Assembly (NCBI RefSeq): GCF_044647545.1
Contig: NZ_CP172818.1
Origin: Escherichia coli
GTDB taxonomy: Bacteria; Pseudomonadota; Gammaproteobacteria; Enterobacterales; Enterobacteriaceae
Strand: one strand, 5' to 3'
Length of the DNA: 64,000 nucleotides
Of the stretch, positions 3,825-59,915 are shown piece by piece. The stretch's first letter is position 1. The number at the start of each line of letters is the position of its first letter. The notes under the pieces are model-generated. The model saw nothing but the letters and a program-made list of their open reading frames with translations, did no database searches and had not been told where the DNA came from. The position numbers and the translations under genes were made by a program.

Positions 3825-4706
3825 ATGAACAGGCTTTTTTCAGGTCGTTCCGATATGCCTTTTGCACTGCTGCTTCTCGCGCCCAGCTTATTACTGCTGG
3901 GCGGTCTGGTGGCGTGGCCGATGGTGTCGAATATCGAAATCAGTTTTTTACGTCTGCCGCTCAATCCCAACATCGAGTCAACCTTTGTTGGGGTGAGTAA
4001 CTATGTGCGTATTCTCTCCGATCCCGGCTTCTGGCACTCGCTGTGGATGACGGTCTGGTATACCGCGCTGGTGGTGGCGGGCAGCACCGTGCTCGGGCTG
4101 GCCGTGGCGATGTTTTTCAACCGCGAGTTCCGCCTGCGCAAAACCGCGCGTTCGCTGGTGATCCTCTCCTACGTAACGCCGTCTATTTCGCTGGTGTTCG
4201 CCTGGAAATACATGTTCAACAACGGTTACGGCATTGTGAACTACCTCGGCGTCGATCTTCTGCATCTCTATGAGCAGGCACCGCTGTGGTTCGATAATCC
4301 GGGCAGTAGCTTTGTGCTGGTGGTGCTGTTCGCCATCTGGCGCTACTTCCCCTATGCCTTTATTTCGTTTCTGGCGATTTTGCAGACCATCGACAAATCG
4401 CTGTACGAAGCGGCAGAGATGGATGGCGCTAATGCCTGGCAACGGTTTCGTATCGTCACGCTGCCCGCGATTATGCCGGTCCTGGCGACGGTGGTGACCC
4501 TGCGCACCATCTGGATGTTCTACATGTTCGCGGATGTTTATCTGCTGACGACCAAGGTCGATATTCTCGGTGTCTATCTCTACAAAACCGCCTTTGCCTT
4601 TAATGACTTAGGGAAAGCGGCGGCGATCTCGGTGGTGCTCTTCATCATTATTTTCGCTGTCATTCTGCTGACCAGGAAACGGGTGAACCTCAATGGCAAC
4701 AAATAA
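3825..4706 (+). CDS. ycjO: ABC transporter permease (MalF-like)
   Basis: 293 aa multi-TM ORF with permease EAA-like loop; overlaps ycjP start by 14 nt (translational coupling). Confidence 0.85.
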   Translation: MNRLFSGRSDMPFALLLLAPSLLLLGGLVAWPMVSNIEISFLRLPLNPNIESTFVGVSNYVRILSDPGFWHSLWMTVWYTALVVAGSTVLGLAVAMFFNREFRLRKTARSLVILSYVTPSISLVFAWKYMFNNGYGIVNYLGVDLLHLYEQAPLWFDNPGSSFVLVVLFAIWRYFPYAFISFLAILQTIDKSLYEAAEMDGANAWQRFRIVTLPAIMPVLATVVTLRTIWMFYMFADVYLLTTKVDILGVYLYKTAFAFNDLGKAAAISVVLFIIIFAVILLTRKRVNLNGNK

Positions 4707-32544: not shown

Positions 32545-32640
32545 ATAAAAAAATAGAGTCTGTCGACATCCGCCAGACTCTACAGTACACACAGCAGTGC
32601 ATCCGCGTCTTAAATCCGGCATGGTCTCCTCTGCGCCGGT
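32545..32640 (-). ncRNA. mcaS: small regulatory RNA McaS (IsrA)
   Basis: Reverse complement reads ACCGGCGCAGAGGAGAC...GAGTCTGGCGGATGTCGACAGACTCTATTTTTTTAT, matching the recalled McaS sequence including terminator hairpin and U-tail; abgR-smrA intergenic location. Confidence 0.8.
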
Positions 32641-36017: not shown

Positions 36018-36139
36018 GCAGGTGAATGCAACGTCAAGCGATGGGCGTTGCGCTCCATATTGTCTTACTTCCTTTTTTGAATTACTGCATAGCACAATTG
36101 ATTCGTACGACGCCGACTTTGATGAGTCGGCTTTTTTTT
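36018..36139 (+). ncRNA. fnrS: FNR-activated small RNA FnrS
   Basis: Sequence GCAGGTGAATGCAACGTCAAGCGATGGGCG...CGACGCCGACTTTGATGAGTCGGCTTTTTTTT matches recalled FnrS, ending in a terminator hairpin plus 8 Ts; zntB-dbpA intergenic location. Confidence 0.8.
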
Positions 36140-40414: not shown

Positions 40415-40696
40415 TTAATTTGAATACAATGCAATTCTCGAGGACTGAAGTTTCTCGCAATTAAAATTTATCAGTTTTACTTTCTGCTCTCTGGAAACGC
40501 CTGCTTCTTTTTTACCTGAGAGCATTTTTTCGCATTCTGATTTCGTTAGTTTAGATTTTGAATATCTTGTCCAGTTAGTAGGAGTGCCACCTTCCTTTTC
40601 AATAGTGGCGGTAATTTTATACATGAACACCTCCATTATTATTTCCAGTGGTTCGTTTATTCCATCTTTCGAGTGCTTCTTTTTCACTTCCACCAT
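40415..40696 (-). CDS. ydaC: prophage protein of unknown function (alternative internal starts give a 69-73 aa product)
   Basis: 93 aa maximal ORF; internal Met candidates (MEVFMYKITATIEKEGG...); overlaps the 3' end of ralR. Confidence 0.6.
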   Translation of the reverse strand: MVEVKKKHSKDGINEPLEIIMEVFMYKITATIEKEGGTPTNWTRYSKSKLTKSECEKMLSGKKEAGVSREQKVKLINFNCEKLQSSRIALYSN

Positions 40697-44763: not shown

Positions 44764-44934
44764 TTAAAGTTCATGTGCCATCTGGTCTTTTTCGGCACAA
44801 GCTTCACTGCAATATTTTCTCGGTTCGTCTTTTGATAAAATCCCGTGCATGAAGTGAAGCATTCTTTCAATAGCTTTGCTTTCTTCAACGTCTTTTTTGC
44901 AAAGGTGGTAAGCACATTTTATTTTCTTAGTCAT
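44764..44934 (-). CDS. ydaE: small prophage protein YdaE (Cys-rich)
   Basis: 56-aa minus-strand [59 protein letters not shown]; start overlaps kilR stop; below ORF-track cutoff. Confidence 0.55.
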   Translation of the reverse strand: MTKKIKCAYHLCKKDVEESKAIERMLHFMHGILSKDEPRKYCSEACAEKDQMAHEL

Positions 44935-45155
44935 CACCATGACTCCGCCTTTACAGGTAAACCATCACGACCGAGGAAGACTTTAATCATGCGGTCAGTA
45001 ATGAATGTTTTTGTGGTCAGGTTACGAATATATAGTTTTCGCTTTTTAATATTGTTTGCCGAGGCAATATATGTCCGGCCTTCATGAAGAACATAATCGC
45101 CAGGAGTCACACACTGACGTGGTATTTCATCAGTTCCGAAGTGATGTGCAATCAT
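44934..45155 (-). CDS. kilR: cell-division inhibitor KilR
   Basis: ORF 44934-45167; 73-aa product [40 protein letters not shown]... matches recalled KilR. Confidence 0.8.
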
Positions 45156-45596
45156 AATTATCTCCATTTTTACAAATGAACTTTGTTGATGCGGTGTCTG
45201 GTGCCTCCAGGTGACTGCAACCAGTTAACAATTACAGTCGGCTTTCCCACCCAAACCAATAAGGACTAACATGACTTTTAACTGTGCCACGTGCGCTTAG
45301 CCGCATTCACCGCATCACAAAATTCACTTTAAAAAGGGCGGACATCAGCCGAACTTCAAGAAAAAAACTGATGCCGCCAGGACTACACACAGCAATGTCG
45401 TTATTTACAACCGGAGGCGCACTCCCACCATTTAAATTTAACAGACAAGACCGACTCTTTATGGATATCGGAAATGCGCCTTCGTGTTGTGCCCGGTTTT
45501 ATTTCACCACCTCCGGGCTTCGGTGGTCTCGGCTATACCCCTACAGCGAGAGCTTGTGTTAACATTTCAATACCCTTACAGTTGAGAGTTATTGAT

Positions 45597-46085
45597 ATGT
45601 TGGATGTATTTACTCCATTGTTGAAACTTTTTGCTAACGAGCCACTCGAAAGACTTATGTATACGATTATCATTTTTGGTCTCACTCTCTGGCTGATACC
45701 GAAAGAGTTTACTGTCGCATTCAATGCTTATACTGAAATACCTTGGCTCTTTCAGATTATCGTTTTTGCCTTTTCTTTCGTGGTCGCCATTTCCTTCTCA
45801 AGATTGCGAGCACATATTCAAAAGCATTATTCATTACTACCAGAGCAACGAGTATTGCTTCGTTTATCTGAGAAAGAAATCGCTGTATTTAAAGATTTCC
45901 TTAAAACAGGAAATCTTATTATCACTTCTCCTTGCCGTAACCCGGTTATGAAAAAATTAGAACGGAAGGGCATCATTCAACATCAGAGTGATAGCGCAAA
46001 CTGTTCTTATTATCTCGTCACCGAAAAATACTCCCATTTTATGAAGTTATTCTGGAACAGCAGGAGTAGACGTTTTAATCGTTAG
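45597..46085 (+). CDS. sieB: superinfection exclusion protein SieB
   Basis: ORF 45474-46085 without upstream in-frame start signal context; likely ATG at 45597 (MLDVFTPLLKLFANEPLERLMYTIIIFGLTLWLIP...), membrane-anchored N-terminus. Confidence 0.8.
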   Translation: MLDVFTPLLKLFANEPLERLMYTIIIFGLTLWLIPKEFTVAFNAYTEIPWLFQIIVFAFSFVVAISFSRLRAHIQKHYSLLPEQRVLLRLSEKEIAVFKDFLKTGNLIITSPCRNPVMKKLERKGIIQHQSDSANCSYYLVTEKYSHFMKLFWNSRSRRFNR

Positions 46086-59340: not shown

Positions 59341-59915
59341 TGGCATTCAGAATGAGTGAACAATCACGTACCGTAAAAATTTATAACCTGCTGGCCGGAA
59401 CTAATGAGTTTATTGGTGAAGGTGACGCATATATTCCACCTCATACAGGGCTGCCAGCTAATTCTACAGATATCGCCCCACCGGAAATTCCTGCTGGCTT
59501 TGTGGCAGTTTTTAACAGTGAAAATGAATCGTGGAATATTGTTGAAGACCATCGTGGTAAAACGGTCTATGACGTGGCGTCGGGGGACGCATTGTTTATT
59601 TCTGAACTCGGACCGCTACCAGAGAATGTCACCTGGTTGTCGCCAGCAGGGGAGTATCAGAAGTGGGACGGCGTATCCTGGGTGAATGATGAGGAAGCAG
59701 AAAAACTGTTTCGGATACGGGAAGCGGAAGAAAGAAAAAGCAACCTGATGCAGGTAGCCAGTGAGCATATTGCGCCGCTTCAGGATGCTGCAGATCTGGA
59801 AATTGCAACGGAGGAAGAAACCCCGTTGCTGGAAGCATGGAAAAAGTATCGGGTATTGCTGAACCGTGTTGATACGTCAACTGCACAGGATATTGAATGG
59901 CCAGCACTGCCGTAG
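59340..59915 (+). CDS. tfaR: tail fibre assembly protein
   Basis: 191 aa ORF whose ATG overlaps the stfR stop (TAATG); Tfa family. Confidence 0.85.

Follow-up and report, generated by a model that had tools for sequence, protein, structure and literature searches.

The kilR–sieB spacer of the Rac prophage carries KilS, a DicF-related small RNA with an RprA-type seed, and a structured kilR leader

Introduction

RprA is a core-genome, Rcs-induced small RNA (sRNA) of the envelope stress response. Its processed form consists of the last 47 nt, and yncL is an RprA target in both TRIC-seq and RIL-seq. The Qin prophage encodes the RNA DicF, whose 3′ part pairs with ftsZ; a 72-nt DicF arises by RNase III cleavage, 19 nt past the 53-nt form. 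In phage P22, control of sieB/esc is reportedly exerted by the antisense RNA sas. Finally, STnc100 has been described beside genes of Fels-1 and also downstream of stx2 (STnc100/PasD family: Zhu, Shabalina & Storz 2026, preprint).

In Escherichia coli K-12, leaky expression of kilR explains the essentiality of Rho and NusG and underlies the growth arrest induced by OxyS, with kilR being switched on by transcriptional read-through when OxyS lowers NusG; the sequence directly upstream of kilR therefore matters. From this region the sRNA KilS was predicted by RIL-seq and verified by northern blotting, with a signal in the wild type that is lost upon deletion of hfq, and it accumulates in stationary phase (Bar et al. 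2021, PMC8175672). The same study places its transcription start at 1418502 (G45428 in the numbering used here), names yncL as its RIL-seq partner and describes KilS as a new 5′-UTR-derived sRNA, with DicF and RprA unmentioned (PMC8175672). Because KilS has only three RIL-seq interactions with low sRNA scores (Bar et al. 2021, PMC8175672), a trans-acting role is thinly supported.

Here we compare the spacer between kilR and sieB with these systems. The window, a stretch of 64,000 nucleotides, represents the Rac prophage of E. coli K-12 (100% match to K-12), and its coordinates equal those of MG1655 minus 1,373,074.

Results

Layout of the kilR–sieB spacer

In the early-left region of the cryptic prophage Rac, recE, racC, ydaE and kilR are encoded on the minus strand and sieB on the plus strand, followed by ydaF, ydaG and racR. 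Since kilR starts at 45155 (−) and sieB at 45597 (+), the spacer extends from 45156 to 45596 and comprises 441 bp. An earlier note on this DNA, drawn up from the letters alone, had called the spacer unusually long, and it is indeed the longest intergenic gap of the annotated Rac early region, the next being that between ydaG and racR (308 bp). The note had also surmised that a structured RNA or regulatory site might be found here. An RNA is present, but on the minus strand and not on that of sieB, and the structured RNA is 80–350 bp distant from the GC-rich repeat that the note had quoted. This RNA is already known: in locus, strand and both ends it is the annotated and published kilS (b4833; Bar et al. 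2021), flanked by kilR and sieB. The significant inverted repeats of the spacer are a pair of 28-nt arms (45169–45196 / 45308–45335) and the terminator hairpin of KilS. Taken together, KilS, its promoter and the kilR leader account for ~300 of the 441 bp (Table 1).

Table 1. Features of the kilR–sieB spacer and its borders, in window coordinates
Feature	Position	Strand	Basis or comment
kilR	44934–45155	−	FtsZ inhibitor; annotation and sequence
kilR Shine-Dalgarno, GGAG	45162–45165	−	Sequence
Structured kilR leader, 165 nt	~45166–45330	−	Fold and covariation; homologous to the Qin dicF–dicB spacer, distantly to STnc100
KilS (kilS, b4833), 98 nt	45331–45428	−	RefSeq MG1655 1418405–1418502(−)
KilS terminator hairpin, GGCGGCAUCAG ... 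CUGAUG-U-CCGCC	45337–45378	−	Fold and Rfam DicF structure alignment
KilS single-stranded seed, AUUGCUGUGUGUAGUC (KilS nt 33–48)	45381–45396	−	Processed RprA starts with the same 16 nt
KilS RNase E site, nt 32, GAC↓AUUGCUG	45397	−	Bar et al. 2021, Supplementary Table 6
Candidate extended −10 of kilS, TGT-TAAATT	45435–45443	−	Ends 6 nt upstream of the mapped start
Spurious ORF antisense to KilS	45284–45562	+	GTG start, 92 aa
Quoted GC-rich inverted repeat, caccacctccgggcttcggtggtctcgg	45505–45532		Weak hairpin at mosaic junction; function unsupported
sieB-proximal block	45535–45596	+	Likely sieB promoter and 5′ UTR, from sequence

Expression signals of KilS

KilS folds with a free energy of −34.9 kcal/mol (z −3.28), and none of 200 shuffled sequences folded as well. 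Its terminator hairpin is followed by a C and five U residues (45331–45336); with a loop larger than the 8 nt allowed, it escaped a simple terminator scan, which gave no hit in the spacer. Across 44 distinct family members the hairpin is 89.5% paired, and covariation in this set amounts to one pair with double changes (four sequences) and is mostly no better than in shuffles. Upstream of the kilS start, the sequence contains no good −35 hexamer. The element TGT-TAAATT is conserved in Rac-SA53 and in other Rac-like loci and, judged by its sequence and position, may be the kilS promoter, a candidate weak extended −10. A second, degenerate copy of the leader upstream of KilS was considered and rejected (local alignment, p = 0.41). 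Supplementary Table 6 of Bar et al. 2021 (PMC8175672), according to our interpretation of its columns, assigns to KilS an RNase E site at 1418471 (45397), and a cut at this position is predicted to release a ~66-nt KilS that starts with the seed.

Relationship of KilS to DicF

The Rfam model of DicF (RF00039) aligns over its full length (model positions 1–52) with 45336–45391(−), scoring 39.1 bits with E values of 4.7e-7 in a 551-nt search and of 5.4e-5 over the whole 64-kb window. This is below the gathering threshold of 48 bits, and genuine DicF copies score 72–77 bits with the same model. The genomic setting is that of DicF: the gene order dicA, ydfA (DUF1391), ydfB, ydfC, dicF, dicB in Qin is paralleled by racR, ydaG, ydaF (DUF1391), then the inserted sieB, kilS and kilR in Rac; in each early-left operon of these lambdoid prophages, a repressor gene comes first, then ydfA/ydaF-type genes and the sRNA, and next the conserved leader and an inhibitor of division. 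Over this region as a whole, Qin and Rac align at 79%. Near-identity sets in at the 3′ terminator arm, holds over ~170 nt of leader and reaches as far as the ribosome-binding sites of dicB and kilR, two unrelated genes. Among phages, Evi carries a genuine DicF (76 bits) upstream of a kilR-type gene, KilS-type RNAs (29–41 bits) precede kilR-type genes in Rac-SA53, phiSTEC1589 and PhiR5_2, and GER2 keeps a KilS-like RNA without leader or kilR.

KilS has a published start of its own, an internal RNase E site aligned to the DicF 5′ end and a dependence on Hfq, and a processed form is predicted. Its sequence is unrelated to the ftsZ-pairing region of DicF, which a windowed duplex scan located to DicF nt 32–53 opposite ftsZ −29 to −7. 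KilS is a paralogue or relative of DicF without being another DicF, and the Rfam threshold places it outside RF00039. In the searchable literature, which covers part of all journals, we found no paper linking KilS with DicF or RprA. We regard the kinship with DicF, the seed of RprA type and the kilR leader with its covariation as new connections, and the first two as a modest lead.

An RprA-type seed

In a local alignment, KilS nt 23–48 and RprA nt 51–75 are identical at 24 of 26 positions, 16 of them consecutive (AUUGCUGUGUGUAGUC). The alignment score is 40, whereas 20,000 shuffles averaged 14.5 and peaked at 32 (Gumbel p ~3e-7), and in a phage variant the match grows to ~30 of 34 positions. 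The seed is placed directly 5′ of the terminator in both RNAs. With the 47-nt form positioned on the RprA sequence, processed RprA begins at AUUGCUG, and the RNase E site of KilS at nt 32 is one base before the same heptamer, where AC↓AUU fits the known preference of the enzyme. KilS thereby displays the arrangement of RprA, a seed at an RNase E site in front of the terminator, with 16 of 16 seed positions identical. Conservation among 17 distinct KilS-type sequences, selected regardless of the seed, peaks in the seed, at 97.4% identity versus 72.8% for the hairpin loop.

The single partner on record that KilS and RprA have in common is yncL. The predicted pairing of KilS with this mRNA (−18.9 kcal/mol at −40 to −16) ranks only within the top 8% of the background. 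Pairing of the common seed with ftsA, a listed RprA partner, was rejected, as the best duplex (−16.3 kcal/mol) falls within a background of −15.3 to −23.7 kcal/mol. The Rfam model of RprA (RF00034) aligns its conserved core with KilS but scores it at 28.1 bits (E 0.38) against a threshold of 70, and the two genes occupy different loci, rprA being located at 1770372–1770477 between ydiK and ydiL and kilS in the Rac prophage. In the rpoS leader, the top predicted sites of RprA lie in −134 to −93, whereas none of the top three KilS sites does, and KilS is thus not predicted to reach the rpoS site of RprA. KilS thus resembles processed RprA and not full-length RprA, and the functions of KilS and RprA may overlap.

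The kilR leader

The leader of kilR folds from 45330 to ~45173 into a multi-branch structure with three conserved inner hairpins and a closing helix of ~20 bp, whose arms (45308–45330 / 45173–45196) form the top inverted repeat of the spacer. Its predicted free energy is −63.5 kcal/mol (z −3.97), and its sequence is near-identical to positions 4436–4615 of the Qin locus L002. An alignment of 30 diverse relatives, among them a Klebsiella phage and the P1-like phage D6, in which tciA follows the element, comprises 41 pairs that are 98.5% paired; 10 of these pairs have changed on both sides, a value reached by 0 of 500 shuffles, while slid controls gave at most 2.

The STnc100 model (RF02076) matches 45148–45334(−) at 28 bits (E 3e-4), under its threshold of 47, and relatives score 28–50 bits with it, for instance Rac-SA53 at 43.8 and the Rac-like locus of Citrobacter braakii at 49.7. 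The Rac leader has the nested multi-hairpin architecture of STnc100, maintained by compensatory changes (10 of 41 pairs). The position at which RNase III cuts in Qin falls in the 5′ arm of the helix that is homologous to the one in the Rac leader, and by this homology RNase III may cleave the Rac leader as well.

Exchange of modules and spread beyond Rac

A scan of IMG/VR for the terminator–leader motif yielded at least 120 loci. Among the matches listed, the RNAs preceding the motif are of the DicF type, the KilS type and several other seed types, and hairpin modules have been exchanged as well. Chimeras of the KilS seed and the 3′ half of DicF occur at 6–7 loci among these listed matches, and in the same set the seed type only loosely tracks the downstream gene. 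No prior description of such seed and hairpin mixing upstream of kilR or dicB was found in the searchable literature.

Beyond Rac, a scan with a single genome for each species looked for KilS seeds joined to GGCGG. One group of hits consists of Rac-type copies in E. coli and Citrobacter braakii. The other has a longer hairpin and prophage-like surroundings and was found in Enterobacter, Citrobacter, Pseudocitrobacter, Erwinia, Superficieibacter, Trabulsiella, Izhakiella, Raoultella, Mixta and Serratia, and in Klebsiella spallanzanii. The seed-bearing RNAs of this second group (GGCGG...CCGCCCUUUUU hairpin, about a dozen genera) are covered by no Rfam family. A conserved micro-ORF in their long hairpins was rejected, as its length and sequence vary and one locus has ACG for ATG.

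The quoted repeat and the sieB side

The GC-rich inverted repeat singled out in the earlier note does exist: a 6-bp stem of ACCACC (45506–45511) and GGTGGT (45522–45527) encloses a 10-nt loop, and a GCCCGG/CCGGGC repeat overlaps and competes with this hairpin. Its stability, however, is that of dinucleotide-shuffled sequence. Structure prediction, one of the checks that the note had proposed, returned −8 to −11 kcal/mol, inside the shuffle range, with z values between +0.43 and −1.18 over both strands and three context sizes (plus and minus strand, respectively: +0.39 and −1.18 in 41 nt, +0.43 and −0.08 in 91 nt, −0.21 and −0.65 in 148 nt). As a U-run is absent from both strands, the hairpin is not an intrinsic (Rho-independent) terminator, and a consensus scan for promoter elements gave no match to it. 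Comparison of four Rac-like prophages revealed homology that spans the repeat and stops right after ~45530, with or without sieB. Since sieB-less prophages, SC418 and PEC399 for example, retain the repeat, it is part of the kilS/kilR side of the mosaic junction and not of the sieB side. As to conservation across Rac-like prophages, a further check named in the note, the repeat is present in several of them but absent from Rac-SA53. We rejected the quoted hairpin both as a structure and as a terminator or promoter element.

On the sieB side, the last 63 bp before the gene are common to K-12 and STEC309, and the sieB coding sequences diverge right after the start codon. A 12-nt inverted repeat (45561–45572 / 45590–45601) spans the sieB AUG. 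A consensus scan found no sigma-70-like promoter in the spacer; a weak candidate for sieB within the 63 bp, with 8 of 12 matches, consists of TTGTGT (45554–45559) and TACAGT (45577–45582) separated by 17 nt. Going by the sequence, the sieB promoter probably resides in the last ~60 bp of the spacer.

Discussion

We consider it highly probable that most of the kilR–sieB spacer is control sequence upstream of kilR, read on the minus strand and made up of KilS, a DicF paralogue with an RprA-type seed, and the structured leader. As others have shown, transcription from a promoter just upstream of 45428 mostly ends 98 nt further on at the intrinsic terminator, giving the published KilS. RNase E cleavage at 45397 would convert it into a ~66-nt form with the seed at its 5′ end, which may then pair with mRNAs that RprA binds as well, such as yncL. 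Read-through RNA, originating either from the kilS promoter or from further upstream under weakened Rho/NusG termination, would continue into the 165-nt leader, as suggested by homology to Qin. The closing helix of the leader, the presumed counterpart of the RNase III site between dicF and dicB, ends 7 nt before the kilR ribosome-binding site, and its cleavage by RNase III would separate the sRNA from a kilR mRNA starting ~10–20 nt before GGAG. Terminator and leader would jointly keep the toxic kilR low. Such a combination of termination and leader cleavage fits the tight silencing of kilR and its release under weakened NusG-dependent termination, and a terminator-ended sRNA followed by a covarying leader in common with dicB offers a concrete map of possible kilR control points.

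The same terminator could, however, be all that matters: KilS would then be a mere by-product of a cis-acting attenuator that silences kilR, a 98-nt RNA without targets of its own. Its location in the kilR 5′ UTR, the controlled read-through into a toxic gene, the three RIL-seq interactions with low sRNA scores and the weak computational support for pairing with yncL all agree with such an origin. A passive by-product would hardly be expected to depend on Hfq, to conserve its seed above all other segments while hairpin loops are freely exchanged, or to have both a seed identical to that of RprA and the partner yncL in common with it. The same seed moreover occurs on different terminators, in phage GER2, which lacks kilR, and, in about a dozen further genera, within prophage-like regions. 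We therefore regard the by-product explanation as rather unlikely. Still less probable, in our judgement, is that KilS acts in the manner of DicF, blocking the ftsZ ribosome-binding site so that sRNA and KilR both inhibit division. A DicF-family RNA upstream of a division inhibitor invites this idea, and natural chimeras do join the KilS seed to the ftsZ-pairing half of DicF. In KilS itself that half (predicted nt 32–53 of DicF) is not conserved and has been replaced, the best predicted duplexes with ftsZ lie at −40 to −17 and miss the Shine-Dalgarno sequence, pairing with ftsA does not rise above background, and no ftsZ chimera has been reported for KilS; we accordingly rejected a DicF-like action on ftsZ.

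Two further explanations look to the sieB strand. According to one, the quoted repeat is a structured RNA or regulatory site for sieB, and the spacer owes its length to the sieB promoter and leader. The repeat exists and is conserved in several Rac-like prophages, two divergent sieB alleles have the adjoining 63 bp in common, and an inverted repeat spans the sieB AUG. Yet the quoted repeat folds no better than shuffles on either strand, has neither a U-run nor a promoter-like match and is kept where sieB is absent (SC418, PEC399), and KilS, its promoter and the kilR leader already explain ~300 of the 441 bp, which makes this account very improbable. The other, that the spacer encodes a small protein, either the ORF antisense to KilS or a SieB of 203 aa extended N-terminally from 45474, we hold to be extremely unlikely. 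Both frames are open in K-12, and strain STEC309 has a PGAP-annotated SieB of 210 aa that includes the extension. The 92-aa ORF, which the earlier note had rightly distrusted for want of a ribosome-binding site, has no match in a Pfam search and is shortened by indel frameshifts to 25–49 aa in six of eight close relatives checked (L016, L017, L020, L024, L031 and L146), and we rejected it as a gene. The extended SieB was rejected too, given that the Pfam SieB domain begins only past the annotated start codon, its first residue being number 62 in the long form and number 21 in the annotated protein of 162 aa; in addition, the upstream ATG lacks a ribosome-binding site, and prophages without sieB carry the same DNA.

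Returning to KilS as part of the kilR control region, we put forward as a more tentative view, about which we are somewhat less than evenly convinced, that it belongs to a modular family of prophage sRNAs with a common DicF-type terminator and leader and exchanged seeds, in which the KilS seed copies that of processed RprA. If this is true, Rac and many Enterobacterales prophages make an RprA look-alike, which would regulate part of the RprA target set, for example yncL, independently of the Rcs signal; alternatively, the 3′ half of RprA and phage RNAs of the KilS type may have a common ancestry. The links to DicF and RprA would turn KilS from an orphan sRNA with one weak partner into a testable case, both of seed swapping within a prophage sRNA family and of a prophage RNA and a core stress sRNA having one seed. 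They also call for caution in work on RprA, as probes and seed mutants for RprA nt 59–75 match KilS as well in Rac-positive strains.

Comparison with known systems

With DicF, KilS has in common the terminator scaffold GGCGG...CCGCCC-U5, the slot between a DUF1391 gene on one side and, on the other, a conserved leader with its division-inhibitor gene, the binding of Hfq, an RNase E site (45397) that aligns with the RNase E-made 5′ end of Qin DicF, and a near-identical downstream leader. KilS differs from DicF in its own start site and 31 extra 5′ nucleotides, in lacking the ftsZ-pairing 3′ region and having another 5′ seed, and in being followed by kilR, whereas DicF is followed by dicB. To RprA it is linked by the 24/26 match with the 16-nt identical seed directly before the terminator, by RNase E cleavage at the 5′ edge of this seed and by the common partner yncL, while the locus (prophage versus ydiK–ydiL), the terminator and the 5′ domain are different. 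The leader aligns with STnc100/PasD over the full model, and the two have the GGUGAAU... and ...UCACCNGGAGGCACCNGGCACC... cores and the nested-helix layout in common; unlike STnc100/PasD, the Rac element is not a free-standing sRNA but the leader of an mRNA, with an sRNA on one side and a toxic gene on the other. As for P22 sas, in both phages sieB faces the early-left operon with a small RNA nearby on the opposite strand. Whereas sas is antisense to the translation start of sieB, KilS stops 169 bp short of that gene's start codon and shows no complementarity with the sieB mRNA as annotated.

Seed exchange among prophage small RNAs

The seed that the Hfq-dependent sRNA KilS shares with processed RprA also occurs in other RNAs. 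Natural chimeric sRNAs join a KilS/RprA-like seed to the 3′ half of DicF, the part that pairs with ftsZ, and kilR-type genes lie downstream of most of them. At one IMG/VR locus the 5′ part of KilS (GCGCUUCCGGUUGUG) is retained and an unrelated seed stands where the RprA-like seed would be, so that seed exchange extends to RNAs built on the KilS backbone itself. In about a dozen genera of Enterobacterales, prophage-like regions carry the RprA/KilS seed UGCUGUGUGUAGUC fused to UUGGCGG...CCGCCCUUUUU, forming a hairpin of greater length with a conserved GAAGAUAAUGUUCU inside. Compared with Rfam, these RNAs matched no family, DicF scoring just 17.8 bits, and the tiny ORF starting at the AUG of GAAGAUAAUGUUCU is not conserved among them.

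The published KilS northern probe 2 is AGGACTACACACAGCAATGTCGTTATTTAC, with its target at 45381-45410 on the minus strand (Bar et al. 2021, PMC8175672). We find this probe to be complementary to RprA as well, across the shared 16-nt seed and its flanks. RprA resembles KilS in size, depends on Hfq and is plentiful in stationary-phase cells, so probe 2 may cross-hybridize with it. The target of probe 1, the terminator loop, is specific to KilS.

The sieB start and further features

The sieB start codon (45597) is spanned by a 12-nt inverted repeat (11/12 complementary), which could occlude the start in the mRNA or serve as a protein-binding site. Strain STEC309 harbours a divergent sieB allele annotated at 210 aa, whose N-terminal extension overlies the GC-rich hairpin at 45505-45532 quoted in an earlier note. 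Since the Pfam SieB domain of this protein begins no earlier than residue 62, these additional N-terminal residues probably reflect a misannotated start. In E. coli strain H1, an IS1 element lies inside the kilR-sieB spacer, which matches in two pieces flanking the IS1A transposase. An Rfam scan of the whole window also located the RNA genes RalA, FnrS, McaS and IS009, each above its own threshold.

Features of the window and of relative loci (L-numbers)
Feature	Position	Strand	Remark
sieB-start inverted repeat	45561-45572 / 45590-45601		AACATTTCAATA / TATTGATATGTT
RalA	40440-40618	+	Rfam
FnrS	36018-36135	+	Rfam
McaS	32545-32640	-	Rfam
IS009	59683-59881	+	Rfam
Seed-DicF chimera	L026:2439-2511	-	
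Seed-DicF chimera	L037:6483-6555	+	
Seed-DicF chimera	L050:6260-6332	+	
KilS 5′ part, unrelated seed	L063:287-359	+	IMG/VR
Seed + UUGGCGG hairpin	L138, L139, L142, L143, L147, L148, L151, L153-L159		
STEC309 sieB	L015:1272-1904		
Spacer match with IS1, strain H1	NZ_CP010160.1 4551667-4552994		
Leader, D6	L013:1201-1321		
Leader, Kp4865-4	L014:1177-1385		

The STnc100-like leader beyond kilR and dicB

In the P1-like phage D6, an STnc100-like leader precedes tciA, a gene whose annotation reads 'inhibition of cell division by homology'; P7 matches the leader too, and Klebsiella phage Kp4865-4 also has one. The leader that lies upstream of kilR in Rac and of dicB in Qin thus accompanies varied toxic or division-related genes.
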